Positions 2,022 to 25,774 are shown, counted from the stretch's first letter. The stretch: DNA of 64,000 nt from Candidatus Multivoradales bacterium (GCA_965248055.1 CBDFIJ010000004.1:1824001-1888000), one strand, 5' to 3'. Numbers and translations are program-made. Notes: generated by a model not told the origin, from the letters alone.

Positions 2022-2140
2022 AGCCCTGACGGCGAGGCTCCCCGACATCACCGCCAACCTAATCTGCAGGGGAGGAGTTTCTTTCTGTGTCACGCCGGTC
2101 GGAACGCGCCTGCGCTACAGCAGCTCAGCCCCATAGCCTG

Positions 2141-2998
2141 TCATTGCCGCGCGGCGACGAAATCGACACCGTTGCGGAAGATGGCAATGCCTTGCCCCTC
2201 GCCATAACCAATTTCCTTGGGGCGGTGCGACCACAGTGGGTGTTGAAACGCATACAGAAAGGCGTCGGGATGGGGCATGATGCCAAATAACCTTCCCGAC
2301 GGATCACACACTCCAGCGATACCGCCGGGTGACCCATTCGGGTTAGCCGGCCATTCTTCGGTGGGCTGGCCGCTAGGATCCACATAACGCGCGGCGACCT
2401 GCCCCGCAGCTTCAATCCTGTCCAGTAGCTCTGGACTCTCAAGCAAGAACTTGCCCTCACCATGTCGGCTGGGAAGCTCCATGCTGTCGAGTCCACGGGT
2501 CCAAACACACGGCGAGTTCTGGTTGATGCTCAGCCGCACCCAAGCGTTGCGGTAGCCCAGATGGTCGTTGGGAGCGAGTGTCGCTCGCGGGGTCCGGTAG
2601 TCGCCGTCTAGACCAGGGAGCATCCCCAGGCGGGTCATCATCTGGAAACCGTTGCAGATGCCGATCGCCAGCCCTCCTCCCTCGATCAACGCCACCAGGC
2701 GATCGTACATACGATGGCGAATGCGGTTGGCAAAGACAAAGCCCGCACCCAAGTGATCGCCAAAAGCGAAACCACCGGGAAAAGAGACAATGTGGAAATC
2801 CGAAAGATGACGTGAACCGTCTAGAAGATCCGTCAGGTGAACTCTCTCAACGCTGGCTCCGGCCATTCTGAACGCGTGCTCAGTCTCGACTTCGCAGTTG
2901 AGTCCAAACCCGGACAACACTACCACCTGGACCGCGGCACGACGCACTACCAGTGCCTCGTCCGGTAACGCCCTCAACGCAACCACTCCGTCAGACAT
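2141..2998 (-). CDS. purQ: FGAM synthase glutaminase subunit PurQ
   Basis: GLNCE, PGGFAFGD, GICNGFQ, HGEGKF, NPNGS and MPHP motifs; overlaps the purL stop. Confidence 0.95.
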   Translation of the reverse strand: MSDGVVALRALPDEALVVRRAAVQVVVLSGFGLNCEVETEHAFRMAGASVERVHLTDLLDGSRHLSDFHIVSFPGGFAFGDHLGAGFVFANRIRHRMYDRLVALIEGGGLAIGICNGFQMMTRLGMLPGLDGDYRTPRATLAPNDHLGYRNAWVRLSINQNSPCVWTRGLDSMELPSRHGEGKFLLESPELLDRIEAAGQVAARYVDPSGQPTEEWPANPNGSPGGIAGVCDPSGRLFGIMPHPDAFLYAFQHPLWSHRPKEIGYGEGQGIAIFRNGVDFVAARQ

Positions 2999-5900
2999 CG
3001 CTCCTCCTGGAGTGGAAGCTATGTCGCAGTTGATCGATGTCGAGGCCCACGTTCGCCCCTCTATCGCTTTGTATAGCCAGTGCCAGCTCTTCGGCTACCA
3101 CCCCGACTCGGGCACAAGGAAGATCTGCCAGCACCGCCTCAAATTCCTGTCGGTTTCGATCGGCAACCGTCACCACAAACCGACCGTTCGATTCTGAAAA
3201 CAAAGCCACGTCCGCATCCATCTTCGTGGCGCCTGGAAGCGCGCCGAGGTCTATCGAAACTCCCAGGCCTCCGGCCATCACGCACTTGGCGAGCGCCACG
3301 CCCAGTCCCCCCTTGGTGGGTGTCGCTGCGGAGCGGATCAAGCCTTGTTCCAACGCTCGGCTCAATGCCTGATACACCGGAAGGAATGCTGCGGTATCTA
3401 CCGTGGGCACCTTGGTGCCAACGTAAGCGGCAGGCACCGACAGGTTGTCGGTTTTCACCGCTTGATCCAGCACCCCTAAGTAACGAAAGTACTCACTACC
3501 GCCAGTGTGCTCCCCAGTCATCCCGAGCACATAGATCGCATCCCCAGCCTGTTTGAAATCCAAGGTGACAGCCATTTCCACGTCATCGATCTGGCCGATC
3601 GCCGACAGCAGCAAGGTCGGTGGCACCGAGATCTTGACCCCACCCATCACCGCGTCGTTCTTCATCGAATCCTTACCCGAGATCAGCGGTATGCCATAGG
3701 CAACGCAGGTGTCATAGAGGCCCCGGCAAGCGCGCACCAATTGTGCCAGTTTGTAATCACCGTCCGGGGCGCTGGCAGACAGCACCGGGTCTGGCCAGCA
3801 GAAATTATCCAGCGCGGCAATCCGATCCAAGCGCCCACCGGCGCATAACTGCTTGCGTAGCGCCTCATCCACCACCGTGGCGGCCATCTCCTGAGCGTCA
3901 AGATCGGAGAGATAAGGATTGACCCCCTCGGAGAGTACAAACCCACGTTTCGATTCGCCGCCGTCCAACTCGTGCCGCGCCAGGAACACGGTTGCCTCAG
4001 CCGGAATATCCTGCTCCACCCCGACCCACGGCTTGACCACCGACAGTGCCTTGACCTCGTGGTCGTAGTGGCGGGCGAAGTCTTCGTTGGAAGCGAGGTT
4101 CAAACCGGAAAGAAGTCCGAGCAAACTGGTTGCTAAGTCGGCGGGTCGGTTAGCAGGCTCATCGAAAACAGGGGGTTGCCAACGCGCAGGCAACACCATC
4201 TCCGGATCGCCCTCATGCAGGAAGTGCATATCCAGCAGGGCCACCGTTTGTTCGCCGTAAAACACGCGCAAGGTCGGATCAGCCGTGAACTCACCCAGGT
4301 CTGTAGCCTCCACCTCACGCCGCGCCGCCAGCGCCAGCAGCGTCTCTAGCTTCTCCGGAGGTACCGCCAGGGTCATCCGCTCCTGGGCTTCCGAGAGAAA
4401 AATCTCCCAGGGAGCCAACCCAGCGTACTTGAGCGGTGCCTTAGCCAAGTCCAAGATCGCTCCACCCGGGGTCTCTGCCATCTCGCCCACCGACGATGAC
4501 AAACCCCCGGCTCCGTTATCGGTGATCGCCGAGTAGAGCCCCAGGTCCCGGGCTTCGAGCAAGAAATCAAACATCATGCGCTGGGTGATCGGATCACCGA
4601 TTTGCACCGCTTGATTGGGCGATTCTTCATCCAGAGCGGCGGAAGAAAAAGTTGCACCATGAACCCCATCGGCGCCGATGCGACCACCAACCATGACGAT
4701 CCGGTCACCTGGGTTGGCCGCTTTCTCCTCGCCTGGCGTGCCGTCAATGGTCACCGGGAGTGAGCCCACGGTGCCGCAGAACACCAACGGCTTGCCCAAG
4801 TAACGGTGATCGAACACCTCCCAGCCGCGGCCATAGGGGACGCCGCTTTGGTTACCGCCGTCGATCACCCCGTGGTGTACCCCCTCGCGGATCCGTCGTG
4901 GGTGCAGCAATCCGGGAGGTAGCTCCTGATCCCATTCGGGAGGACCAAAACAATAACCCCAGACGTTGACCAGCAAGTCCGCTCCTCGGCCAGTGCCAAA
5001 AGGATCACGATTGACGCCGACAATGCCGGTGATCGCCCCACCGTAAGGATCCAGCGCAGACGGAGAGTTGTGTGTCTCGACCTTGTAGACCAGATGGACC
5101 TGATCGTCGAAGGTCACCACCCCAGCGTTGTCGTGAAACACCGACACCAACCAAGATTCCCCATCCCGGTCGATCTGCTGCTGGCGTACCGCGTCGGTGG
5201 TGCCTCGGATGTAGGTGCCAAACAGAGAATCAACCGTCTCGCTCGCTCCGTGCTCATCCTGATACTCAATCGTGGCGTTGAAGATCTTGTGCTTACAGTG
5301 CTCGCTCCAAGTCTGAGCCAAGCACTCCAGCTCGACATCCGTCGGTGACCCTTCAAGCCCCGCGGCTCGGCGATCAGAGTCGTCATCTAGACTGCGGAAG
5401 TGATCGCGGATGGTCTCCATTTCCACCAAGGACAGGGCCAAGAGCCCTTTGCGACTGATCTGCTCCAACTCTCGATCACTACCGGAAAGGTCGATGGCCT
5501 TGACCGCTGGCGGAGGTCCACCCGCCACCTTGGGGACCGTCAAGTCGGGGTCGGAGTTAATCCACTGGTTCCAGCTCGCAACCGTGATGGTTTGAATCAC
5601 CGGATTGGCCAGCAGCTCCACCGCCACCCGTTCGGCTTGCTCGGCGTCGAAGTCGCGAAACAGAACCAACGTCGAGGTGTAGACCGCAGCGCCCTCGCCC
5701 AGTTTCCGGCCAACAATGTCCTCGACCGCCACCAACGCACTCTTGCCCACCGGATCGGCAACTCCCGGCTTAAACGCCACTCGCACCGCGACATCAAACG
5801 GTTCCAAATCCACTCGGCCCAAAGCCGCTACCTGGCGCACCGGGTCGGCGAACTCTTTAGCTACTTGAGCCGCTTCAGACGCCGAAACCGCACCCTCCAG

Positions 5901-6252: not shown

Positions 6253-7437
6253 ATGAACGTGACACAACACCTTCGTGTATTGGCTTTGTCTGCTATTGGG
6301 CTGTGCAACTCGCTCTTTGCGCAACAGCTGACGGTGACGCATGGCAACTTCTCCACCACCTTCTTGATGACCGGCGAGCTGGTGGCCGAAGAGGCGGTTC
6401 GACTGACCATTCCCTTCGCCAACATCTGGCCAGTTACCATTCGCTGGATTGCAGAAGACGGCGTCAAAGTTGACCCAGGAGAGGTCGTTGCCGAGTTCGA
6501 CAACTCAAGTCTCACAAGTGAGTTAATTGAAAAAGAACGTACCGTAGAACAACAAGAGCTTGAGCTTCAAGCGCTCAAGGCTCGTACCCGAAGCGAGGAA
6601 CTCCGCGCATCTCTTGACCTTGAGAGAAAACAGTCGGCATGGGAGAAGGCCAAACTTGATGCGACCGTTCCAGCCAGTCTTTTGGCCTCCCAGGACTATG
6701 AGCGACGACAACTCGATATGCGACGCGCACAGCTGGCCTTCAACCAGGCCCAACAGACCCTGGGTCAACAACAGAAAAAGACGCTAGCTGAGATCCAAAA
6801 ACAATCAATCACCTTGGAGAAAGCCCGGCGCAGTGTTGCTCAAGCAAAAAATGGAATCGACCGGCTGGCACTAACGGCTCCCAAATCAGGAGTCCTGCTG
6901 ATTCATGAACATCCGCAAGAGGGAAGGACGTTTCAAGCGGGTGACTCTTCTTGGCCTGGTGTTTTGGTTGCCAGTTTGCCTGACCTTTCGACGTTGATGG
7001 TCAACGCATGGCTCTTCGACGTTGATGCCGGAAGAGTCGAAAGCGGCATGAGGGTAACCGCATCCATCGACGCTTTCCCTGAGCTTGAACTTGAAGGAGA
7101 AATCGTAGAGGTTCAGAGTTTTGCCGAGGCGCCCAAGCCTGGATCGAGCCAACGTCGGTTTCAAGTGCGCGCTCGGCTAAAGGATCTCGATCCTAGCCGT
7201 ATGCGCCCTGGGATGTCGGTCAAACTCATGGTGCATACGCTACAAGAAAAAGTCTTAGTGATTCCTAGGTCGACCCTCTTCTTTGATGCTTCTCAGCCCG
7301 GAAAGGTGGTTATGGCACACCTCGTCAACGGAAAGGACACTCCAGTAGAGCTTGGCTCTTGCAATCGAAGTCATTGCGTCCTCCTTGCGGGGCTGGATAT
7401 CGGCGCGAAGCTGATGAACACAGACCTAGGCCAGTGA
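6253..7437 (+). CDS. HlyD/MacA-family periplasmic adaptor 1
   Basis: Signal peptide from ATG 6253, lipoyl-like halves (EDGVKVDPGEVVAEFD, LTAPKSG), coiled coil, MRPGMS. Confidence 0.85.
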   Translation: MNVTQHLRVLALSAIGLCNSLFAQQLTVTHGNFSTTFLMTGELVAEEAVRLTIPFANIWPVTIRWIAEDGVKVDPGEVVAEFDNSSLTSELIEKERTVEQQELELQALKARTRSEELRASLDLERKQSAWEKAKLDATVPASLLASQDYERRQLDMRRAQLAFNQAQQTLGQQQKKTLAEIQKQSITLEKARRSVAQAKNGIDRLALTAPKSGVLLIHEHPQEGRTFQAGDSSWPGVLVASLPDLSTLMVNAWLFDVDAGRVESGMRVTASIDAFPELELEGEIVEVQSFAEAPKPGSSQRRFQVRARLKDLDPSRMRPGMSVKLMVHTLQEKVLVIPRSTLFFDASQPGKVVMAHLVNGKDTPVELGSCNRSHCVLLAGLDIGAKLMNTDLGQ

Positions 7438-8675
7438 AGACGCACCAAGTGGGATCCGAACCGTTGCTTAAACGCACTATTCTGGTCACTTTGGCAGTAG
7501 CAATAGCTGCGCTGGTGGCTCTTGCTCTTTCGACCGCAAGCGGCCCTGGAAGTGGTTCGTCTCTGAAAGTCGAGAGGCGTGACCTAACGTTTGGTGTTGA
7601 GACCGAAGGTGAACTGCGCGCCACCAAAACCGTCTTGCTCGGGCCACCTCAAATCCAAAGCACGTGGAACTTCAAGATTTCGATGCTGGCAACCGATGGT
7701 CAGTCGGTTGAAGAAGGAACTCCGGTCCTTGCGTTCGACGCAACTGAGCTAGAGAGGAAGCTTCAAGAACGGCAGGCACGTGCTGAATCCACCCAGAAAG
7801 AACTGAGCAAAGTAACTACCGACCTAGAAATCGCCGGTCACACTCTGGAGCTAGAGCTGGCAGAGGCTGAAGGTCGGCTACGGCAGGCCCAGCTCAGAGC
7901 CGGAGTCACCGCTGAAACGACCGCTTCGCGTGAACTCGAGAAAGCACGCATCGACCTCCAATTGGCCGGTAAGGAGATTGAGGCGATCAACGCCCTTCTT
8001 GTCGAGCACAAAGAGAGAGAGCGGTCAGAAACCGCTGCGTTCCGTAAAAAGGTCGCGACTGCCCGGCAAACCGTTGAGCAGTTGCGCCAGGATGTCGCCG
8101 CCATGACTATTGTCGCCCCTAGATCAGGAACGGTCGTCCTCAGAGAGGACTGGCGCGGCAACAAGATGGACGTAGGCGACGATGTTTGGCGGGCTCAAAA
8201 GATCCTTGAGATTCCGGACCTCACCAAGATGGAAGGCGCAGCGCTGGTCAACGAGCAGGCAGCTGGACTTCTGCGAGAAGACCTCGTCGCGACCCTAGCC
8301 TTGGAATCTCAACCTGACCACGAGTACCAAGCCAGGATCTTGTCAATTCGCCGCTCGATTGGCCGCAAATCGCCGCAAAGCCCCGAAAAAGTCGTCCGGG
8401 TGGTCCTGGCGTTGGACGAAACCGATACCGAGAGAATGCGCCCCGGCATGCGTTTTCGAGGCACCATTGTCACCGATACTGCGGTCAATGTCCTCGCGCT
8501 TCCCCTGAACGCAATCAACTCCAATCCCGATGGGCGTCCCTATGTCGACACAATAGGTACTTTCGGCAAACGAAAAGTGTTTCCAGTGTTGGGGCGCAGA
8601 AATACAGACTATGTTGAGGTTCTTTCCGGGATAAGCGAGGGTACGCGAGTTGTTTCATCGGGGGCCGACAAGTGA
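7434..8675 (+). CDS. HlyD/MacA-family periplasmic adaptor 2
   Basis: GTGA coupling to the upstream gene, N-terminal TM, DGQSVEEG, IVAPRSG, MRPGMR. Confidence 0.85.
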   Translation: MKTHQVGSEPLLKRTILVTLAVAIAALVALALSTASGPGSGSSLKVERRDLTFGVETEGELRATKTVLLGPPQIQSTWNFKISMLATDGQSVEEGTPVLAFDATELERKLQERQARAESTQKELSKVTTDLEIAGHTLELELAEAEGRLRQAQLRAGVTAETTASRELEKARIDLQLAGKEIEAINALLVEHKERERSETAAFRKKVATARQTVEQLRQDVAAMTIVAPRSGTVVLREDWRGNKMDVGDDVWRAQKILEIPDLTKMEGAALVNEQAAGLLREDLVATLALESQPDHEYQARILSIRRSIGRKSPQSPEKVVRVVLALDETDTERMRPGMRFRGTIVTDTAVNVLALPLNAINSNPDGRPYVDTIGTFGKRKVFPVLGRRNTDYVEVLSGISEGTRVVSSGADK

Positions 8676-9964
8676 AGACACTCCGAACCTGCCAGATCGG
8701 TTTGCTGGCCGTAGCTTTGGTCGCGTTTCTAGCGTGCGAGTCGCGGTTGCAAATTCCGGTAATGGAAGTGCGTAGCGCGTCTTTTCAGCTCAGCGTCGAT
8801 GCCGAAGGCATATTGGAAGCCAAAGAGGTCACCAAGATCTCCGTTCCTCTTTCCCTTCGGCGACCGGTACGTGTGGCGTGGCTGGCACCCGATGGAGCCC
8901 TTCTCGGTGAAGGCGACCTGATCGCTCAGCTCGATGGTAGCGATCTGGGGCTCGATCTCGCCAATGCTCTTGCTGAGCTACATTCCTCCAATCAAGATGC
9001 CGACGGGAAACAAGCCGAGAGCGACATCCAGATCAGTGAGCAAGAACGTGTCTACAGAACAGCCGAGCTTGAGCTCGATTTCGCACAACGTTTCCGGATT
9101 ACCGATGGGTTTGTCTTCTCGCGCCACGAAATCTTGGAAGACCTAATCGATGAAGAGCTCGCCATCGTTAGACGAGATAACGCCGAGACGATGACCGAGA
9201 TCTATCAAGGGCTGAGCAAGACCGAGATGGAGATCATCGCGCTCAACCAGGGCATCTGGACAACACGCGCCGAGGAGGCGCAAACCGGACTCGAAAGCCT
9301 TGAAGTTAAGTCGCCCGGAACTGGGGTTCTAAGAATCGCAAAAAACTGGCGCGGTGAACTTGTCTCGGTTGGAGATCAATTGTGGGCGGGGCGACCGATC
9401 GCAGAGCTTCCGAACCTTGATTCATTGCAAGCTGAGGTCTTCGTACTGGAGTCGGATGCTGGGAGCATTAAGGAGGGGCAATTGGCGACTGTCTCCGTCG
9501 ACTCTGCTCCAGGCACCGTCTACACAGCTCAAGTGATTCGCCTCGACGCAGCTGCAAAGCCACGCATCCCAGGCTCTCCAGTCCAGTACTTTGGTGTAAC
9601 CCTGGAGTTCGATGGGGCAGTGGAAGGAAACTTGAAACCGGGACAGCGGGTCGCTTCTACGATCATCATCGAACAGTTTGACAAAACTATCGTTATTCCT
9701 CGCCAAGCTGTGTTTCGCAAGGGTCAATACTCGTGGGTTTACCGAAAGAGCGGAAACACATTTGAAGCCTTACCGGTTTCACTCGGACTGGGTTCGGCAG
9801 CCTTGTCGACTATTCAGTCCGGCCTCGAAGACGGCGACATAATCGCCTTGAGGGAACCACCTGGCATGCCGGTGCTAGAGGATCTACCCAGTACTGAGCA
9901 GCACAAACCCGAGGCGGCGAAGGACAGCCCCGAGCAGGACTCCGAACAAACTCCCAGTCAATGA
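8672..9964 (+). CDS. HlyD/MacA-family periplasmic adaptor 3 (possible lipoprotein)
   Basis: FLAC lipobox-like motif, PDGALLGEGD, VKSPGTG, LKPGQ. Confidence 0.85.
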   Translation: MKTLRTCQIGLLAVALVAFLACESRLQIPVMEVRSASFQLSVDAEGILEAKEVTKISVPLSLRRPVRVAWLAPDGALLGEGDLIAQLDGSDLGLDLANALAELHSSNQDADGKQAESDIQISEQERVYRTAELELDFAQRFRITDGFVFSRHEILEDLIDEELAIVRRDNAETMTEIYQGLSKTEMEIIALNQGIWTTRAEEAQTGLESLEVKSPGTGVLRIAKNWRGELVSVGDQLWAGRPIAELPNLDSLQAEVFVLESDAGSIKEGQLATVSVDSAPGTVYTAQVIRLDAAAKPRIPGSPVQYFGVTLEFDGAVEGNLKPGQRVASTIIIEQFDKTIVIPRQAVFRKGQYSWVYRKSGNTFEALPVSLGLGSAALSTIQSGLEDGDIIALREPPGMPVLEDLPSTEQHKPEAAKDSPEQDSEQTPSQ

Positions 9965-17299: not shown

Positions 17300-17411
17300 G
17301 GATCGATCCAAGAATAGACTGCGAATTGTGAACTCTCTCGGACCAGCTGCTCGTATTGTCTGAGCAGTGGGCAGTCAAAGACCGCCACTGGAGCTACCTA
17401 AGGAGCCAACG

Positions 17412-18569
17412 ATGAAGATAATCACCAAGAGATCTCTGAGCATGGTGATGCTTGCAATCATGATCGCGTGCGGTTCGTCTACCGCAGAAGAAACCGAAGT
17501 CAGCATCCAGGAGGACGTCATGGAGTCAGAGTCTCAAAGCTACGCAATCTTTGCCGGTGGCTGCTTCTGGTGCATGGAAGGCCCGTTTGAGCAGCTCGAC
17601 GGGGTCTACCAGGCTGTTGCTGGTTACACCGCCGGGCGAGTCGACAACCCCACCTACCAACAAGTTTCGGCGGGTACCACCGGGCACACCGAAGCAGTCC
17701 GCATCGCCTACGACCCAGAGAAAGTCAGCTATGAAAACTTGTTGGAGACTTTCTGGCGCAACATCGACCCCACCGACGGTGGGGGTCAGTTTGCCGATCG
17801 TGGTTCGCAGTACCGCACTGGCATCTACTACCAGACCGAGGAAGAACGAGCCCTAGCTGAGGCCTCAAAGGCTGCGCTCGAGGCGAGAGGCAAGTTCTCG
17901 GATCCAATCGTCACCGAAATCGAACCGGCGAGCACGTTTTATGTTGCCGAGGAAGTCCACCAGGACTACTACAAGACCAACGCCGATCACTACAACCGCT
18001 ACAAGGTGGGGTCTGGGCGCGATGGCTACCTCAAAGAGACCTGGAAGGATGAACCCCAGCCCCAGCCAGAGCCAGAGCCAGAGCCAGAGCCAGAGAAGAT
18101 AGCGCCCAAACAATCTGCCTACAGCCGGCCCAACAACGAGGAAATTCGCGCCATGTTGACCCCGCTGCAATACCAGGTGACCCAGCAAGAGGGCACCGAG
18201 CGGGCCTTTGACAACGAATATTGGGACAACAAACGGGACGGAATCTACGTCGACGTGGTCAGCGGCGAGCCTCTGTTTAGCTCCCAGCACAAGTACAAGA
18301 GCGGGACTGGATGGCCGAGCTTTTGGCAGCCTCTGGTACCTGAGAACATCGCTCAACACCAAGACAACAAGTTCTTCATGAAGCGTACCGAAGTGCAGAG
18401 CAAACACGGCCAGAGCCACCTGGGGCACGTGTTTCCGGACGGTCCGAAACCCACCGGGATGCGCTATTGCCTAAATAGTGCCTCTCTTCGCTTCGTGCCC
18501 AAAGAAGAGTTGGACGCCGAGGGTTACGGCGAGTTTGCCAGCTTGTTTGAGTCCGCTTCCGCGGAATAG
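17412..18569 (+). CDS. msrAB: Bifunctional methionine sulfoxide reductase MsrA/MsrB, lipoprotein
   Basis: MIAC lipobox, [35 protein letters not shown]. Confidence 0.96.
18054..18095 (+). repeat. Hexamer repeat encoding the PQ/PE linker of MsrAB
   Basis: (CCCCAG)2(CCAGAG)5. Confidence 0.85.
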
Positions 18570-18689
18570 GCGGACATCTCGCTCTTTGTTCGCCCTTTCA
18601 AATTGGCCGCCCGTTCGGCTATGTGGCATTGCCAGTTCATGGCGCTAATACTCGTGGTGACCGGTCTCAAATCCGGTGTGCCGGGAGTT

Positions 18690-18948
18690 CAACCGTAGCC
18701 ATCTACTCGAAGAGTGTCTCTGCAATTCGGGCCACTATGGCCGACACCATCGACCTAGGCAAACGAGGCCTAGCCATCGCTGAGTCAGGCTACGGCAACC
18801 AACCCCAGTTTCTATCCTCTGGACTCAACGAACTCAAGCCCGAGATGGTTGAAGAAGCGACCAAGAAGGCCCGGCTGATCGCGGAAAGAAATTCGCCCAA
18901 GACTCCGACAGCCGGCTAGGCAAAATCAAGTCTGCGCGCCAAGGATAG
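18690..18948 (+). pseudogene. SIMPL (DUF541) family remnant
   Basis: GLNELKPEMVEEATKKAR, then shifted-frame KFAQDSDSRLGKIKSARQG*; both ends missing. Confidence 0.75.
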
Positions 18949-18964
18949 TTTGCGTAAGTAGGGT

Positions 18965-20608
18965 CTAAGACTCGATCTTTATCGCCTCGGCAACCGATTG
19001 AATCCACACACCCTCATTAGCCTCGTAGGTGCCCTCTTTCTGGTTGAGCCGCGCCATCTCCGTGCCGCCAGCATGGTGGAGACCGATGAGCTTCCACTGC
19101 GAGTTGAAGACCGGGCTTCCCGAGCTTCCGCCCTCGGTCGGCGCGCGGTAGTGCAGAAGTGGCGCTTGGTGGTCGAGAAGCACATTGTCTTGAATTGAGA
19201 AAGAAAGGGAGCCCCCCTTAGGATGGCCGATGACGTAGACACGTTGTTCACCATCCGCGAGTGGTAGCCGCGGTGCCAGCGGATAAGGCTCAAGTCCCGC
19301 AGGGTTTTCTTCAAGCCGCAATAGGCTCGCATCCAGTTCCCAGGGAGGCGAGCTCCAAACAATCTGAGCCACCGAGTACTCATCGTCGTCCCTGGTCTCT
19401 TCTTTGAGCAACTGAAAAGTGACGATGGCGTCGTCGGGACGAAGAGCGCCCCGCACCGCCGGATCTTCACTGACAACATGGGCGTTGGTGAGCAGCATCA
19501 GTTCATCGCCAAACGGCTCATGCAAGTCACCTCCTCGAATGATGAAGCCGGTACCGAAGCCCTGACCCGGTTGATATTCAATGCGCGCGACCGCGCGAGC
19601 TCGATCGATGCCCTTCAGCATGAACTTGTAGTTGACGTAGCGGACCTTGCCAAAGGTTTTTTCGAAATTTTCCGCGTGTGAACCCTTGAGTGCGTTGGAG
19701 TTCAGATGCTGTGGTTGAATGTCCAGGGAGCCACCTTGACGGTTCAGCAGCTCTGCCTTGAGTAATGGCAACAAGCTTGATCCTGGGTCGCTGTCAAGGT
19801 CTAAACGCCAGACCTCCTCGAGTTGCCGCAATGTGCTCGCCAGATGAAACGCCTCAAGATGCGGCTCACTGACGTAACGACTGAGCCAGCCACTGGCTTC
19901 AGTTGTCTTACTTAGGGCGATGCAGGCCTCCATCGCGGTTCCAGAGTCCCAGGTGGTCGCCTGGCCGTTGCTCCATTTCGCGGTCAACAAGTCAAGAATT
20001 TCCTGGGCGATTGTCATCGATCGCGCGGCTGTGTCAATAGTGGCCTGCACCGGTACTCCATCGACCGCTGCCCTTCGCAGCGTGGCAACGGCATTGATCC
20101 CATGCCAACTGTGCTCTGTAGGATCGCTGACGTACGCGGAGTGATACCAGTTAATCGATTGGTTTAAAGCTCGCCGAGCCTCGGCACTTTCAGGGTTGTC
20201 GAAATCGACGTAAATCTGCTTGTAGGCTCGTCCCAGAAGTCCGCGTGCTTCGGAGTGTTCAACTGCGTGTTCCTGTCGATCAGCTGTCTGCTGGACAAGG
20301 TTGTCCAGAAAAGAAATGGCTGCGCACAGGGCTCCTTGATCCAGTAGTGCTTGCGCGTAGTGCTGGCGAATCCGTGGCGCCTGTACTCCGGTCTGTAAAA
20401 AGACGTCTGCTACGCGCTGAAGAAGATTGAAATAGCGTTGGCGTTGGAGGTGTCCGAGAACCTTGCCAGCAGCACCGGACTCGTAGAGTTCGGTGTTTGT
20501 TCTCAGACGTTCGATCAGACGCTCACACAAACGCTCGGTTCTAGCTCGGTCGAACGCGTTGACCGCCGTGTTGAGTTCCCCTTCGAAGTGATCCGGATCC
20601 CAAGTCAC
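18965..20608 (-). CDS. TPR-S/DUF4071-like helical domain fused to a trypsin-like (V8-type) serine protease
   Basis: EARGLLGRAYKQ and WHGINA in the N-terminal domain; triad TNAHVV, LDASLL, TEGGSSGSPV plus GLHHAG; no signal peptide. Confidence 0.85.
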   Translation of the reverse strand: MTWDPDHFEGELNTAVNAFDRARTERLCERLIERLRTNTELYESGAAGKVLGHLQRQRYFNLLQRVADVFLQTGVQAPRIRQHYAQALLDQGALCAAISFLDNLVQQTADRQEHAVEHSEARGLLGRAYKQIYVDFDNPESAEARRALNQSINWYHSAYVSDPTEHSWHGINAVATLRRAAVDGVPVQATIDTAARSMTIAQEILDLLTAKWSNGQATTWDSGTAMEACIALSKTTEASGWLSRYVSEPHLEAFHLASTLRQLEEVWRLDLDSDPGSSLLPLLKAELLNRQGGSLDIQPQHLNSNALKGSHAENFEKTFGKVRYVNYKFMLKGIDRARAVARIEYQPGQGFGTGFIIRGGDLHEPFGDELMLLTNAHVVSEDPAVRGALRPDDAIVTFQLLKEETRDDDEYSVAQIVWSSPPWELDASLLRLEENPAGLEPYPLAPRLPLADGEQRVYVIGHPKGGSLSFSIQDNVLLDHQAPLLHYRAPTEGGSSGSPVFNSQWKLIGLHHAGGTEMARLNQKEGTYEANEGVWIQSVAEAIKIES

Positions 20609-20621
20609 AGATCGCTTCCCA

Positions 20622-21563
20622 TCATAGGTTCAGTTGGCGCACCAGCGTAGAGCGCAATCGATTACCGCCCAGGTACTTCGAGATGTTATGCCGCCAGCGG
20701 CCATAGTTTTGTTCATTAATGTCTAGAACAATCGCCTCAGATTCTCGGCGGTAGTCGTTGGCAACCTTTGGGTCGAGCCCGGCGACTGGATCCAGTTTGT
20801 CGTAAATATTGGCCCATCTCTCGTTAACAACGGTCTCTGGGAACCCATTGTCCCGACTCCACTCTGGTTGCAACTTGTCCTGGATTTCGTCCAAGCCGAG
20901 CGGGCTTCCAATGGTCATCAAAGCGTCGATCTGCGGACATTCGGTGACGCGTTTGAGGCAGTCATACGCGATCACCGTCCCCATGCTGTGACTCACCACT
21001 ATGTGAGGGCCAGCCTTTCGCGAGCCTTCCCGGATCGCTTGGACGAATCGATTGCGTACTTCATCTTGAACTCGATAGGTTTCGCCTTCTCGTGGTGTGC
21101 TCTCGCTGTTGAATAGATAGTGGTGGACGTCACGAAGGAAGGCCTTCATGAACCGACGTTTCAACCACCAAGGCAAAGGGATCCGTTCGAAGTCGACCGA
21201 CTCCATTTGATCCACGGAGGGCTGAAAATTATCATCGCCTTCTGGAGCCGCGGCCAGAAGCCCAAGTTTCTTCGTCAGGCTATCAATCCAGATCTTCTCC
21301 TCTTCTTCCTTGAGGCCGTCCCGCCAAGCCATTTCAGCGTCTTCATCTGTCTTCACAATGACACTGTCGTTACTTTCGTGCTCGGCCATTTCTTTTTGAG
21401 GGTTCTTGTACATCACATCGGCCCAATAGACCATGCTGGAAGTAACCCCTTCAGCGCCTAGATCGAGCCCTTCATCGCGGGCTAGTGACTCGCGCCAGAT
21501 CCGGAGCAAAACATCCCGAGATGGTTTGTTTGCGATTCCATGAACGAAAGTTACGTGTGGCAT
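20622..21563 (-). CDS. Alpha/beta-hydrolase fold protein
   Basis: FVHGIA, nucleophile elbow SHSMG, TIGSPLG, LDPV, C-terminal His (WRHNI); likely start MPHVTF. Confidence 0.85.
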   Translation of the reverse strand: MPHVTFVHGIANKPSRDVLLRIWRESLARDEGLDLGAEGVTSSMVYWADVMYKNPQKEMAEHESNDSVIVKTDEDAEMAWRDGLKEEEEKIWIDSLTKKLGLLAAAPEGDDNFQPSVDQMESVDFERIPLPWWLKRRFMKAFLRDVHHYLFNSESTPREGETYRVQDEVRNRFVQAIREGSRKAGPHIVVSHSMGTVIAYDCLKRVTECPQIDALMTIGSPLGLDEIQDKLQPEWSRDNGFPETVVNERWANIYDKLDPVAGLDPKVANDYRRESEAIVLDINEQNYGRWRHNISKYLGGNRLRSTLVRQLNL

Positions 21564-22058
21564 AGTAGCTTTCCACTCACTCTTCAAAAATCGACTGACC
21601 CTGCTTGGCAACTACCCTACCATTGAGCCGCTCCGGCTCATCAACGAAACCATCTTCCGGCATCAAAGTCGCTCGCACTTTGTCTCCCCAGGACTCGCGA
21701 ACTTCGGACTGCCCAAGTAATTCGATAATCTCGAATCATGAACACACCTACCTGGCACGGATGAACGACAAGGGAAAACGCTGAGTCTTACGAGCGTTTA
21801 CTGGAGATAGAAATCTTTCCGGGAAGCGCGGCCAAACAATTGGCTGGATACCGTCATGTTGAACTATTCTGCGGTTGGGTTGACTGGCGCCAAGGTGAGT
21901 TGTGACCGTCATGTGGTTTGACGACCTGGTTTCTGTACGCCAGTTCGCAGGAGATGCCTATTTGGGCAGATGAAGCGAGGAGAATTCTTGCTCGATTAGA
22001 TGAATAGTCTATGCATTTTGAAGTACGCCAGAGTGTGTCGGCATCCAAGGAGGTGTAG

Positions 22059-22985
22059 GTGAAGATCGTAGTGTTTGGTGCTGGCGGGGTCGGCGGTTAC
22101 TTCGGGAGTCGTTGGAGCGAGGCTGGACTCGATGTCACCTTGGTCGCCCGAGGAGATCATCTAGAAGCCGCTCAACGATCTGGGATGAAAATCGTGAGCC
22201 CGTTGGGAGACTCCCTCGTCCCGGTGCCGGTCACAGACGATCCTTCCGCGATCGGTGAAGTTGATGTGGTCATTGTCGCAACCAAAACTTGGCAACTCTC
22301 TCAGGCAGTGCGAGTAATCAAACCTTTAGTGGGCGAAGAAACCATGGTCGTCGGGCTGCAGAATGGCGTCGAGACCGCTGGCCAGATCACAGAGGCTTTG
22401 GGCGCTGACCGTGCTCTGGGTGGGAGTTGCCGGATCATTAGTTACATAGAACAACCCGGAGTCATCCGCCACGTGGGGGCGGACCCCACCATCATCCTGG
22501 GTGAACTTGGCGGTGGAAATTCGGACCGTGCGCGACGCGTGGTGGACACCTTGAACCCAGCGCCCGGTCTCGAGGTTCACCTCAGCGACCAGATCGAGTC
22601 GGTGATTTGGCACAAATTCCACTTCTTTGCCCCGGTTGCCGGTGTCAGCTCGGTGACCCATGCCGCGATCGGGACAATGCGGTCCACGCCTCAAGTACGC
22701 TCGATGCTGCGAGCCGCGATGGATGAAGTGGTCGCAGTGGCGCAAGCCAATGGCATCACAATGGATGACAACACCACCGACCGTTCGCTGGCCTTTGTCG
22801 ACAAGCTCCCAGAGAACGGCACCAGTTCGATGCAGCGCGATTTTGCCGCTGGGCGGCGCACCGAACTGGAATCTCTGAATGGTGCCGTGGTGCGCATGGG
22901 ACAACAACTGAACGTCGCGGTACCGGTGAACGCACTTCTGTACGCTGCCTTGCTCCCTCGAGAACTCCATGCCCGTACCAGATGA
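22059..22985 (+). CDS. panE: Ketopantoate reductase
   Basis: GAGGVGG, LQNGV, SSMQRD, TELESLNG. Confidence 0.92.
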   Translation: MKIVVFGAGGVGGYFGSRWSEAGLDVTLVARGDHLEAAQRSGMKIVSPLGDSLVPVPVTDDPSAIGEVDVVIVATKTWQLSQAVRVIKPLVGEETMVVGLQNGVETAGQITEALGADRALGGSCRIISYIEQPGVIRHVGADPTIILGELGGGNSDRARRVVDTLNPAPGLEVHLSDQIESVIWHKFHFFAPVAGVSSVTHAAIGTMRSTPQVRSMLRAAMDEVVAVAQANGITMDDNTTDRSLAFVDKLPENGTSSMQRDFAAGRRTELESLNGAVVRMGQQLNVAVPVNALLYAALLPRELHARTR

Positions 22986-24028
22986 GCATGAGGTTGATCA
23001 GAGGGCGTTTCCAAGGCCTGGGACATCTTCGTCATTTAGGGGTATCTTGGGTCATGACCCAAGATATCGCTGAGAAACGTATCCGAGCATTGAGATTCTG
23101 GCAGGAGCATGGGATCGATGCAGCGATCGATGCATTTTCGGTGAGCCGGAGGACTCTGTACCGCTGGAAGTCTCGTCTTGGTAGGTGCAAAGGAAAGCTA
23201 ACCTCTCTAAACCCTCAATCAACAGCTCCGAAGAAAAGAAGACGGCGCAAGTGGCCAGCTGAGGTGGTCTCTGAGATCGGTCGATTGCGGGTCAAAGAGC
23301 CCAATCTTGGCAAGGACAAGATCTATCCGCTGTTGAAACCCTGGTGTGAAGTAAGGGGAATTCCCTGCCCCTCGGTGAGCACCATCGGCCGCATCATTGG
23401 CGATGCTCCCGACAAGATGCGCTTGGTGCCTCAAAGGATTGATCGCCTGGGTCGAGTGAAAGCAAAACGAAAGCGTAAGCCTCGCAAACCTAAAGGAACC
23501 AAGGCATGCTCGCCTGGCCAGTGGGTGGCAGTAGATACCATCGAGCGATTCTGTGATGGCCAACGCCGGTACTTGATCACTCTGACCGATGCCGCCAGCA
23601 GCATGAGTCTGGCAATAGCCACCAACTCCCACACCTCGAGCACGGCAGCGCGCTTTCTGGACCTGAGCCTTGATGTCTTGCCATTTGCTGTTACTACCGT
23701 GCTCTCAGACAACGGTAGTGAGTTTCAAGGAGCCTTCGACAAGAAAGCTGCTGAGGCTGGAATCAAACGCTGGTACACCTACCCCAGGTGCCCGAAGATG
23801 AACGCCCAAGCCGAGAGATTCAATCGAACCATCCAGGAGAAATTCGTTGACTACAACGAAGACTTGCTCTTCACTGACCTCCAAGCTTTCAACCAAAAAC
23901 TCTTCGACTGGATGCTCTGGTTTAACGCCGAAAGGCCCCACTGGAGCCACGGACAAAGACCACCGCTACAATACGTAGCGGAACATACCGATCAGTGCCA
24001 AATGTCATGGACGCATACAAACTCTTGA
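22982..24028 (+). mobile_element. IS481-family element, DDE (rve) transposase
   Basis: HTH VSRRTLYRWK, AVDT, SDNGSEF, MNAQAERFNRT, FNAERPH; probable right end ...GCATACA at 24019; left end not identified. Confidence 0.88.
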
Positions 24029-24053: not shown

Positions 24054-24181
24054 TTTGGAGTTGAAAACTCATTTGGTGGCGAACGTAGTTGGTTCGGTTT
24101 GGGCTAAACAAGCTGAAGACAAACGACCGGCCGTTCGTCATCTGTAGGCAGTGCAACTTGGCTGTCAAAAAGGAGATGATG

Positions 24182-25774
24182 ATGAGCTTGGATCACAACC
24201 CCGCAACCTTGGCCGCTCCTGAGCCTTTCTTTGTCGGGGAAGAGCAAACAGATAGGAACCTAGTCTTCCTTCTCGACCCTCTCGTGGGGCAGGGAATGCG
24301 CAGTGATGTCGAGATCTCGATCCCGGGGCGCACCACCTACACCGGCAGTCCGGTGGGATTCAAAGACCCCATTGCGATTCAATACATCGCCGCCCACTTG
24401 GAATCGAAGGGGTTTGAAACGTTGGTGATGATGAAGGCGCTAATGGAAGACCGGGAAATTCTTGGCAGACTTAGCGACGTCGAAGATCGACTACTTGCGA
24501 TCTGCATCGCTCTGCACTCGACTTACATGGTCCCGGGAGCCTTGGAGTTTGCGCGTAATCTCAAAACTTCCTTCCCAGATATTCCACTGATTGTCGGTGG
24601 CTATCACCCCACCGGAGATCCCGAAATCGCCCTCGACCCATCCATCGACTTTGCCATCCTGGGAGAAGGAGAAGCCGCTTGCGAAGAGTTACTTCGCGGG
24701 CTGCAAAACGGTGCAACCAGTGATGACTTCGCCAACATGCCCGGCCTCGCCTTTCGTGGTTCTAACGGCGAAATGATGGTGACCCCCCGGGGGCCACGGG
24801 TAGAGTTTTCAGAGCTGCCGTGGCCCAAACGTGAGCAGGAGATCTTGGATCTGTGTCACCCTGGGCCGCTCTCCTATCCGCCGGTAGGTAACGTCGCCCA
24901 AATCGCCTACTCGCGTGGCTGCCCCTACGGTTGCAACTTCTGTGCTTCGGTGGGAATGTGGAAACGGATCGTCAACTACCGTGAGCCTGCCGACGTGGCG
25001 GCAGAAATGAAACACCTGATCACGCACCACGGGGTCAACAATTTTTTCTTTTGTGACCTTTCTTTCAACGGCGTCAAAAAGAAGCTCTTGGAACTTTGTG
25101 ATCACACCGAGCAGCTTGCCGTCGAAGTCGATGTCGAATTTGGCTGTCACGTGATGTGTACCAGCACCATCATCGACGAGGAGGTTCTGGCGCGGATGAA
25201 AGCAGGTCGATTCTGGAAAATCGATTACGGACTCGAAGACGTGCTGGAGGGAACCATCAGCCGGATCAAGACCTTCCAAAAGATCAGTCGCATCCGCACC
25301 ACTTTGGACCAAACTAATCGCTACGGCATCTTGATGCGCGGTTTGATGATGATCGGCTATCCCTGGGAGACCGAAGAGACCATGAATATGCGTGAGGAGC
25401 TTATTGATCAGTTCTTGGTCGACCAACTGCGGCTGTGTTTCTACACCCCATACAAAGGCACACCGCTTTACGACGAGGTCAAAGATCGCATTATCGTCGA
25501 GGCCGATGGCATGACCACTGACCGGCCGGCGATTCGCTGCGGCGGTATTTCCTCTGAAAAGTTAATGGCCAGCGTGCCGCGCCTGTTGCGGCGGCTGTAC
25601 AACTCGGATAATTACGCAGCACACATCGCCCAGAAGTGTGGTGATTTCCCTGAACTGGCGCCCTCGTACGACCACTTCTTTCAGTATCTTCACAAGAAGG
25701 AACTAACGACGGCTGCTACCTCTGAACGCTTGAGGCTGACTACCGAGCGAAGCCTTCTGGCGATCGGAGCGTAA
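24182..25774 (+). CDS. Cobalamin-binding radical SAM enzyme (class B methyltransferase-like)
   Basis: IVGGYHPT, GEGE, SRGCPYGCNFC, MIGYPWET; RBS AAGGAG before an ATG run at 24176-24184. Confidence 0.88.
   Translation: MSLDHNPATLAAPEPFFVGEEQTDRNLVFLLDPLVGQGMRSDVEISIPGRTTYTGSPVGFKDPIAIQYIAAHLESKGFETLVMMKALMEDREILGRLSDVEDRLLAICIALHSTYMVPGALEFARNLKTSFPDIPLIVGGYHPTGDPEIALDPSIDFAILGEGEAACEELLRGLQNGATSDDFANMPGLAFRGSNGEMMVTPRGPRVEFSELPWPKREQEILDLCHPGPLSYPPVGNVAQIAYSRGCPYGCNFCASVGMWKRIVNYREPADVAAEMKHLITHHGVNNFFFCDLSFNGVKKKLLELCDHTEQLAVEVDVEFGCHVMCTSTIIDEEVLARMKAGRFWKIDYGLEDVLEGTISRIKTFQKISRIRTTLDQTNRYGILMRGLMMIGYPWETEETMNMREELIDQFLVDQLRLCFYTPYKGTPLYDEVKDRIIVEADGMTTDRPAIRCGGISSEKLMASVPRLLRRLYNSDNYAAHIAQKCGDFPELAPSYDHFFQYLHKKELTTAATSERLRLTTERSLLAIGA

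Follow-up and report, generated by a model that had tools for sequence, protein, structure and literature searches.

The gene pair at the locus

In a 64,000-nucleotide stretch of DNA from Candidatus Multivoradales bacterium (GCA_965248055.1, CBDFIJ010000004.1:1824001-1888000), here called the window, we examined two adjacent minus-strand genes, one encoding an alpha/beta-hydrolase and the other a protein in which a helical TPR-S domain is joined to a chymotrypsin-fold serine protease (Table 1). The hydrolase open reading frame (ORF) lies 5' of the protease ORF, and the pair is present as a single copy in its own genome (3.41 Mb). The open frame of the hydrolase extends to a TTG at 21611 (20622-21611); the ATG at 21563 fits the starts of homologues, and in alignments the starts of both proteins agree with the Met/Val positions of their homologues. 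A purine-rich GGGAAG in the spacer between the genes precedes the GTG start of the protease, and spacer and motif together would be consistent with a single transcript whose translation is coupled. Promoter and terminator scans gave sites no more numerous than in shuffled sequence.

An earlier note, made from the sequence of the window alone, had described two co-oriented genes 13 bp apart that run opposite to their neighbours, and we found this layout as described, with flanking genes on the plus strand at both sides. The note had also stated that neither protein carries a signal peptide; direct reading of the two N-termini (MPHVTFVHG in the hydrolase and MTWDPDHF in the protease) agrees, in that a hydrophobic stretch is absent from both. 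The SHSMG motif of the hydrolase and the GLLGRAYKQ and WHGINA motifs of the helical domain protein are likewise where the note had placed them. Its statement that the pair abuts a broken SIMPL gene did not hold. The 98-amino-acid ORF in question (18623-18919) matches no Pfam family, and the SIMPL model, run against all six reading frames of the complete genome (E<=1), had no match at the locus.

Conservation of the pairing and gene fusions

To each of the two proteins corresponded about 1,950 clusters (90% identity, E<=0.001), and many pairs were listed from contigs of equal size. We retrieved 80 genomic loci by way of the hydrolase, from Gammaproteobacteria, Acidobacteriota, Acidimicrobiia, Planctomycetota, Gemmatimonadota and others. 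At least 1750 bp of downstream sequence was available for 66 loci, the other 14 ending too early, and in 64 of the 66 the next gene downstream, in the same orientation, encodes a TPR-S-trypsin protein; L048 and L080 (29% identical) depart from this. Similarly, a survey of the order detected orthologue-grade matches in 4 of 150 other genomes, all four with the protease downstream, and none in the same-genus genome.

The two genes also occur as single chains. When 1.84 billion representatives (50% identity) were searched with a profile, 3,491 matched at E<=0.001, 1,267 of them at E<=1e-10 and 137 at E<=1e-30, and we scanned 14 of 150 listed proteins, chiefly over-long ones, against Pfam; two of the 14 had no Pfam match. 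Three proteins of 882-900 amino acids (P0043, P0254, P0259) consist of hydrolase, TPR-S and Trypsin_2, and a fourth (P0248) adds Metallophos to these. The hydrolase is joined to Trypsin_2, with or without Endonuclease_NS, in P0313, P0281 and P0270, to a subtilase in P0368, P0374 and P0380, to Metallophos in P0243 and to TIR_2 in P0246. Metagenomic gene calls may join genes erroneously, but the recurrence of one architecture in several independent representatives argues against such errors here. In P0313 and P0281 the hydrolase, Trypsin_2 and Endonuclease_NS parts stand in two differing orders. Together, these results demonstrate that the two genes form a conserved, near-obligate unit.

Prediction of a complex between the hydrolase and the protease lends the pairing weak support. 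The score was 0.48 (runs of 0.34, 0.51 and 0.48), the best of three controls scoring 0.00; the runs have at least 66% of contacts in common, partner pLDDT (predicted local distance difference test) is at least 82, and the prediction reported no interface. Of 80 solved complexes, 58 attained the mark used, as did 2 of 110 mismatched pairs, and passing scores of up to 0.60 came from 7 of the 80 solved complexes and from both passing mismatches.

L048 (5659-10283) holds the only close hydrolase homologue, about 47% identical, without a protease; upstream of it lies a TIR ORF, and downstream a gene of the metallo-beta-lactamase fold in convergent orientation. We also looked, by crude ORF clustering, for a third gene shared by all loci, and rejected the idea: the clusters were lineage-specific neighbours and one artefact composed of antisense and low-complexity ORFs in high-GC DNA.

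A lipase-like hydrolase with a variable insert

The hydrolase matches Abhydrolase_6, Hydrolase_4 and PGAP1 in Pfam, in each case below threshold, and an NCBIfam search gave nothing meaningful for hydrolase or protease. Its catalytic residues are nevertheless plain from conservation: the oxyanion residues H8-G9, the nucleophile S193 of the SHSMG motif, the acid candidates D255 and D258, and H292 are each conserved at 97% or more in 193 hydrolase sequences. The AF2 model (pLDDT 84.7, predicted template modelling score 0.87) depicts a minimal alpha/beta core with an insert. Foldseek neighbours include the lipase of A. fulgidus, Bacillus LipA and the DDHD domain of Nir2, and further S-formylglutathione hydrolases, an acyl-protein thioesterase and prolyl oligopeptidases; Atlas neighbours fall in PGAP1-, LCAT- and Lipase_3-like clusters. 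From these modelled likenesses, a membrane-damaging (phospho)lipase or esterase is the most likely activity of the hydrolase.

The insert, of about 73 residues, separates an N-terminal beta-alpha-beta unit from the catalytic core. It is weakly conserved across the 193 aligned sequences and in the model is partly helical (residues 79-83, 87-100 and 117-121). Amid this variable region stand two conserved pairs of residues, E63 (90%) with S64 (79%), and E126 (99%) with R127 (80%), and the model falls below a pLDDT of 50 only at residues 60-66 and 124-126. We predict that the partner protease cuts after E63 and after E126, with R127|I128 as an alternative second site. The E-R pair of the second site is kept in TPR-S-trypsin fusions and lost in the protease-less TIR-hydrolase fusion P0246, an anecdotal observation.

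A superfamily of protease-coupled hydrolases

The order survey placed this hydrolase among relatives with other proteases. A physical tie to a protease was found for 12 of the 17 hydrolase homologues examined; three others (L088, L097, L098) are unclassified, and the matches in G093 and G033 were left out. Four relatives, about 30% identical (L086, L087, L089, L090), carry the hydrolase as the N-terminal domain of a 773-899-amino-acid protein that ends in a Peptidase_S8 subtilase. Four others, of 293-308 amino acids, are encoded directly downstream of Peptidase_C14 (caspase-domain) genes, whose ends they overlap. These caspase-linked hydrolases match the profile of the window's family at E-values of 1.8e-19 to 4.4e-22 and carry an [RK]-G motif at residues 71-74 and again at 112-115 (93 and 134 in L096 as called, its start being over-long). 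The profile matches and the two-site motifs lead us to place the window's hydrolase in a protease-coupled superfamily, as a branch that has switched partner.

Two lines of published work bear on this superfamily. In the VMAP ternary systems, caspase domains are always accompanied by a neighbouring alpha/beta-hydrolase, according to Kaur et al. 2020 (PMC7159879). LcHydrolase of Lysobacter capsici (Evans et al., PMC12642450) is described in that 2025 preprint as a zymogen activated by double cleavage: its caspase-like partner, LcCaspase, cuts at R73|G and R117|G, and its N- and C-terminal pieces are jointly toxic. The same authors give lipases and oligopeptidases as its closest HHpred homologues, report no nuclease activity and call its substrate unknown.

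By its published description, LcHydrolase resembles the hydrolase studied here in several respects. Its type belongs to the homologous hydrolase superfamily (profile E-values of 1e-19 to 1e-22), has about 300 amino acids, a Ser-Asp-His triad and lipase- or oligopeptidase-like folds, is encoded next to a protease, and has the same three-part anatomy of two exposed sites around a middle fragment; the insert here corresponds in position to the LcHydrolase fragment R73-R117. The caspase-linked relatives have their first [RK]-G where E63-S64 stands, in a variable region where the alignment is uncertain, and R127-I128 aligns with the second [RK]|G, so that R127 would be P1 and E126 P2. There are also differences. 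LcHydrolase is partnered by a caspase-like cysteine protease, the hydrolase here by a serine protease of the Trypsin_2 family whose triad is H/D/S; the gene order, hydrolase first, is the reverse of the caspase type; and TPR-S is the predicted sensor. Both aligned sites lack the R|G motifs of the LcHydrolase type and read E-S and E-R (E63-S64 and E126-R127-I128) within the retained three-part layout, and the sites are about 63 residues apart rather than about 41.

Several members of the superfamily show other contexts. The hydrolases of L092 (3932-4807, minus strand) and L093 (3827-4819, minus strand) form a branch of 292-331 amino acids that adjoins an Acyltransferase-domain gene and a coiled-coil protein, not a protease. 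A Shewanella sediminis orthologue is publicly named 'serine protease, subtilase family', a name that the hydrolase-subtilase fusions may explain.

The TPR-S protease

The downstream protein scored above the curated Pfam cut-offs for Trypsin_2 (4e-24), for TPR-S (PF20308; 3.9e-17, 63.1 bits against a cut-off of 27.6) and for MAP3K_TRAF_bd (PF13281, the former DUF4071; 4.1e-9, 36.4 bits against 24.1). The TPR-S match spans residues 63-177 and the MAP3K_TRAF_bd match residues 62-234, within an all-helical domain that has 14 helices in the model and that we predict to be sensory or regulatory. These matches bear out the TPR-S/DUF4071-like domain of the earlier note, and the triad that it had called intact (H377/D426/S496) is invariant among 32 protease homologues.

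The closest solved sequences to the protease domain are SplB, the V8/Esp glutamyl endopeptidases and the exfoliative toxins (E-values of 1.4e-7 to 3e-3, about 20% identity), and the closest folds also include FAM111A and DegS; Foldseek of the whole model is dominated by the protease domain, and these structural neighbours concern that domain. With the staphylococcal S1B proteases (V8/Esp, Spl and the exfoliative toxins) it shares the chymotrypsin fold, the His-Asp-Ser triad and a T...S...H motif round the catalytic Ser. Those enzymes are secreted and have pro-peptides, whereas the protease here is cytoplasmic, about 20% identical to them and C-terminal to a 290-residue helical domain. T491 (-5 from the Ser) and H511 (+15) are invariant in the family and align with a Thr and a His of SplB, making them candidate S1-pocket residues. 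In V8-type enzymes, these positions presumably shape an S1 pocket that prefers Glu/Gln, which we take as a lead.

The MAP3K_TRAF_bd match is shared with the central regulatory region of ASK1/MAP3K5, which, unlike the bacterial protein here, is a eukaryotic kinase scaffold. Bacterial conflict systems are, according to PMC8195603, the source of some components of the ASK signalosome.

TIR genes near the pair

We scanned 15 paired loci with Pfam and found TIR_2 proteins (E<=1e-5) within 4 kb in eight of them, L025 being just below the family cut-off; nSTAND1 was present in two of the 15 and a second TPR-S protein in one. A TIR profile built from these TIR_2 matches located TIR ORFs in 44 of the 80 loci, within 4 kb in 42 and adjacent (<=400 bp) in 12, eight of the adjacent ones being co-directional; L003, L014, L016 and L072 typify three-gene loci with a co-directional TIR gene. 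The flanks of the pair, 869 kb in all, hold 64 TIR ORFs, as against 3 in the 3.41-Mb genome of the window with the same profile (Pfam TIR_2 also gives 3), a density about 70-fold higher. In five genomes picked for their TIR-bearing loci, and hence biased, 10 of 23 TIR matches fall inside the 17-kb loci. PADLOC, run on 59 hand-picked neighbour proteins, matched ThsB models in L003, L020 and L072 and PDC-S01 in one locus; its other matches were only TIR parts of other systems.

Published TIR systems offer precedents for a TPR sensor and for proteolysis. According to the preprint 10.64898/2025.12.03.692087, the type VIII Thoeris effector ThsI combines a CMP hydrolase with a TPR, responds to cyclic ADP-ribose (cADPR), and has the TPR domain that Aravind and colleagues predicted in TIR signalling. 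The same preprint describes a type IV Thoeris in which the TIR product activates a caspase-like protease that is indiscriminate toward cellular proteins, and lists 29 putative Thoeris effector types. ThsI and BcTir/BcTpr (10.1101/2023.05.26.542521) resemble the present family in that a TPR is proposed to perceive a TIR-made signal, and TIR genes stand near many of our loci. The output of ThsI is a nucleotide hydrolase on the same protein, whereas here it would be a protease and a separate zymogen, and the TPRs are likened by description. Type IV Thoeris (TIR plus ThsE) is a precedent for nucleotide-gated proteolysis; ThsE, by contrast with the protease here, is caspase-like and indiscriminate and has neither a dedicated zymogen substrate nor a TPR-S. 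A Thoeris-type system would have a TIR-domain (ThsB-like) gene at its locus, and in the window the pair stands without a nearby one.

Other proteins encoded near the pair include, in L013 (10604-13567, minus strand), a 988-amino-acid protein convergent to the pair, with a C-terminal full MAP3K_TRAF_bd/TPR-S and a 620-amino-acid N-terminus without assignment. Small RyR-domain proteins are encoded near the pair in L014 (11665-12021) and L016 (5919-6515 and 6542-7990), and in L016 a Lipase_3 protein is encoded directly upstream of the hydrolase.

Plasmid carriage and exchange of cassettes

The distribution of the pair is patchy and accessory. The hydrolase occurs on seven rhizobial or agrobacterial plasmid records (Agrobacterium, Rhizobium and Sinorhizobium; conjugative plasmids) at 48-54% identity. 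In pAtl-11c, a conjugative plasmid of Agrobacterium, a hydrolase (54% identity to its counterpart in the window) and a TPR-S-type 'serine protease' (35% identity to its counterpart) are flanked by a ParB-N-domain gene and the gene of a large DEAD/DEAH helicase. The matching slot of pTiAF1_95 holds a 'caspase family protein' and a hydrolase. The flanks of the two slots are 86.5% and 80.4% identical in DNA, whereas the cassettes have no DNA similarity. Their occupation of one plasmid slot argues that the trypsin-type and caspase-type cassettes have equivalent jobs; the LcHydrolase type is like ours also in that the two cassettes are interchangeable there.

The slot in the window is variable as well. 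In the same-genus genome G026, the msrAB-like and ketopantoate-reductase flanks are kept and about 7 kb of unrelated genes lie between them (window 18562-22070 against L103, G026:C2:649300-660000), which shows that its content varies within the genus. The G026 genes are those for a CNNM/CBS protein, a 1255-amino-acid PKD/CarboxypepD_reg protein, a 265-amino-acid ORF and a SnoaL-like protein.

A proposed protease-gated death effector

We propose, with a probability of about 0.6, that the pair is a two-gene cytoplasmic module of the bacterial conflict or anti-phage kind, in which a protease gates a lipase-like death effector. The product of the first gene would be an inactive lipase-like alpha/beta-hydrolase proenzyme with an acidic insert of about 73 residues. 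In the resting state, the TPR-S domain would hold the protease off, until a trigger, either a TIR-made nucleotide signal or a direct phage cue, switches it on. The protease would then cut the hydrolase at the two exposed linkers that flank the insert, after Glu63 and at Glu126/Arg127, and the N- and C-terminal pieces would together form an active esterase or (phospho)lipase, leading to cell death or arrest. Observed here are the structure of the genes, their domains, the conserved pairing and fusions, the homology to caspase-linked and subtilase-fused relatives, and the mobility and surroundings of the pair; in this scheme we infer the cleavage, the cut sites, the toxicity, the substrate, the trigger and the role in defence.

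Much of this had been anticipated in the earlier note, which proposed a TPR domain sensing a trigger and a protease that cleaves and activates the hydrolase. Homology supports that idea through the pairing, the fusions, the tested-zymogen relatives and the equivalence of the cassettes, and the co-occurrence of homologues for which the note had suggested looking is evident from 64 of 66 loci and from the fusions. The enrichment near defence genes that it also raised is seen across the family, 42 of the 80 loci having a TIR ORF at most 4 kb away, and not in the window, where no such gene stands beside the pair. The Foldseek comparison it called for returned lipase- or esterase-like neighbours for the hydrolase and V8/Spl-type neighbours for the protease; the hydrolase matches were weak, and the TPR-S part had no neighbour. 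As for its remark that the architecture is not a named system, PADLOC has no entry for the pair, but the general principle is published, and the module is less unprecedented than the note supposed.

Indeed, the principle of proteolytic licensing has already been published, as a prediction in 2020 and in experiments in 2025. Another arrangement, the trypsin-like protease with a metallo-beta-lactamase (MBL)-fold nuclease proenzyme of Avs, Hachiman and further systems (Tuck et al. 2025, PMC12799240; Evans et al.), is like the present pair in having a sensor-fused chymotrypsin-fold protease, two site-specific cuts and an adjacent proenzyme. The effector there, in contrast, is a DNase of the metallo-beta-lactamase fold that has no relation to our hydrolase, and its sensors are STAND NTPases and others, not TPR-S. 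We found no description in the literature searched of a TPR-S/DUF4071-trypsin paired with such a hydrolase, which survey figures or supplements of PMC12642450 and 10.64898/2025.12.03.692087 may list. What is new is apparently the combination, as yet undescribed, of a TPR-S sensor, a V8-like protease and Glu where the caspase-linked relatives have Arg.

If the proposal is true, the TPR-S sensor, V8-like serine protease and hydrolase proenzyme would be a third arrangement for the proteolytic licensing of death effectors, and one that is common in environmental bacteria. It comes with handles for testing, namely the two predicted Glu sites, which are Arg/Lys in the caspase-linked relatives, and the natural swap of cassettes. 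The association with TIR could connect nucleotide signalling to a protease cascade, and the divergent second branch of the hydrolase could help to find the substrate of the family.

A more specific version of the proposal, which we regard as tentative, is an undescribed Thoeris-type pathway in which a TIR-made, ADP-ribose-derived nucleotide acts on TPR-S, TPR-S on a Glu-specific protease, and the protease excises the insert from the lipase proenzyme. The precedents of ThsI and type IV Thoeris, the ASK ancestry and the TIR neighbourhood make this a serious possibility for the family. It is not the whole story, because nearly half of the loci, including the window, have no nearby TIR. On such a pathway, the module here may never have had, or may have lost, a linked TIR gene, and may act in trans to one of the genome's three TIR genes or respond to a direct trigger.

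A number of observations weigh against the proposed module. Foldseek gave the hydrolase weak matches only (best E-value 3e-4, template modelling score 0.41), and the complex prediction is faint. In PADLOC-DB v2.0.0 the hydrolase had 0 matches at E<=0.1, and the protease had weak, domain-level ones only (RT-Protease_XI 3.7e-7, LmuA 0.0028). Within the window there is no TIR match, the three TIR genes of the genome being 339-1507 kb off; no known defence gene stands beside the pair, whose neighbours are of the housekeeping type; and GC content shows no anomaly and no island signal. Elsewhere, 38 of the 80 loci have no TIR ORF within 4 kb, and among viral contigs 13 pattern matches included no relative. 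The locus counts overstate independence, because many of the 80 loci are kin (the Acidimicrobiia set, for example). The one relative that has been put to experiment is partnered by a caspase and is about 26% identical. At the second site, the conserved Glu is off by one residue from the caspase-type scissile bond, and R127, which matches the caspase-type P1, is just 80% conserved, so that the assignment of the site is uncertain; the Glu specificity of the protease is a lead drawn from the V8-type S1 pocket.

Three other explanations share some of this evidence. The protease might itself kill by broad cleavage, with the hydrolase serving not as a zymogen substrate but as a regulator, a decoy or a second effector in its own right. 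A model for this would be the caspase-like protease of type IV Thoeris, which is reported to be indiscriminate (10.64898/2025.12.03.692087), the interface between the two proteins is only weakly supported by complex prediction, and hydrolases without a protease exist (L048, the acyltransferase-adjacent L092 and L093, and the TIR fusion P0246). We nevertheless consider it unlikely: pairing in 64 of 66 loci together with fusions exceeds what co-regulation of two separate effectors needs, the caspase-partnered homologues retain both cleavage motifs of the validated zymogen, and the conserved Glu residues lie in the sole disordered loops around the variable insert.

The same biochemical logic might instead serve competition among mobile elements or plasmid maintenance, through exclusion, addiction or interference with incoming DNA. 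Carriage on conjugative plasmids of Agrobacterium, Rhizobium and Sinorhizobium, the swappable slot between the ParB-N-domain and DEAD/DEAH helicase genes and the insertion sequence (IS)-type transposase 1.4 kb off in the window all suit that role, to which we assign a low probability: the majority of the 80 loci lie on chromosomal contigs, in the company of TIR, nSTAND1 or WD40 genes of the sort that mark immunity islands, and PMC12642450 discusses the validated relatives as modules against phage. Least probable to us is an ordinary physiological pair, a regulated protease and a lipase or esterase that serve the turnover of lipids or proteins or adaptation to stress and play no part in conflict. 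It would account for the housekeeping-type neighbours in the window with no known defence gene beside the pair, for the lack of a matching PADLOC system, and for domains common in proteostasis (TPR and trypsin folds, with DegS/HtrA among the fold matches). It does not sit well with a patchy occurrence, in 4 of the order's 150 genomes and not in the same genus, with carriage on plasmids and exchange with a caspase-hydrolase module, with a TIR density about 70-fold higher in the flanks than in the own genome, or with homology to a cell-killing zymogen.

Coordinates and flanking genes

Table 1. Features of the gene pair, its surroundings and the comparison loci. Positions are those of the window unless a locus is named.
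Feature	Position	Strand	Remarks
Alpha/beta-hydrolase gene, predicted proenzyme/effector	20622..21563	-	313 amino acids from ATG at 21563
Hydrolase oxyanion residues H8-G9	21537-21542	-	conservation
Predicted first cleavage site, codons E63-S64	21372..21377	-	conservation, low pLDDT, alignment
Variable acidic, partly helical insert, residues 53-125	21189..21407	-	predicted inhibitory middle fragment
Predicted second cleavage site, codons E126-R127	21183..21188	-	just 5' of conserved I-P-L-P-W
Hydrolase nucleophile S193 (SHSMG) codon	20985..20987	-	conservation
Hydrolase acid candidates D255 / D258	20799-20801 / 20790-20792	-	conservation
Hydrolase catalytic H292	20688-20690	-	conservation
Intergenic spacer	20609..20621	-	13 bp, TGGGAAGCGATCT on coding strand
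TPR-S + chymotrypsin-fold serine protease gene	18965..20608	-	547 amino acids, GTG start
TPR-S/MAP3K_TRAF_bd-like all-helical domain, residues 1-290, predicted sensor/regulatory	19739..20608	-	Pfam and model
Disordered linker, residues 293-324	19637..19732	-	pLDDT<50; variable in alignment
Protease domain, residues 327-547	18968..19630	-	Pfam, alignment, model
Protease triad H377 / D426 / S496	19478-19480 / 19331-19333 / 19121-19123	-	alignment
msrAB-like flanking gene	17367-18569	+	housekeeping-type
Ketopantoate-reductase-like flanking gene	22059-22985	+	housekeeping-type
IS-type transposase ORF	22982-24028	+	rve/rve_3 integrase core and HTH domains
Hydrolase-subtilase fusions	L086:118-2580(-), L089:100-2625(-), L090:1354-3675(+), L087		
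Swapped cassettes, two related Agrobacterium plasmids	L104 (NZ_CP138323.1) 6846-9603; L105 (NZ_CP124966.1) 2101-5093		

The transposase ORF shares 4 bp with the 3' end of the ketopantoate-reductase-like gene. Just past it lies a B12-binding radical SAM gene (24089-25774, plus strand), which a DNA search found to be missing from the matching stretch of the same-genus genome. The transposase itself has a 78%-identical DNA copy elsewhere, at an unrelated site in the same-genus genome G026.

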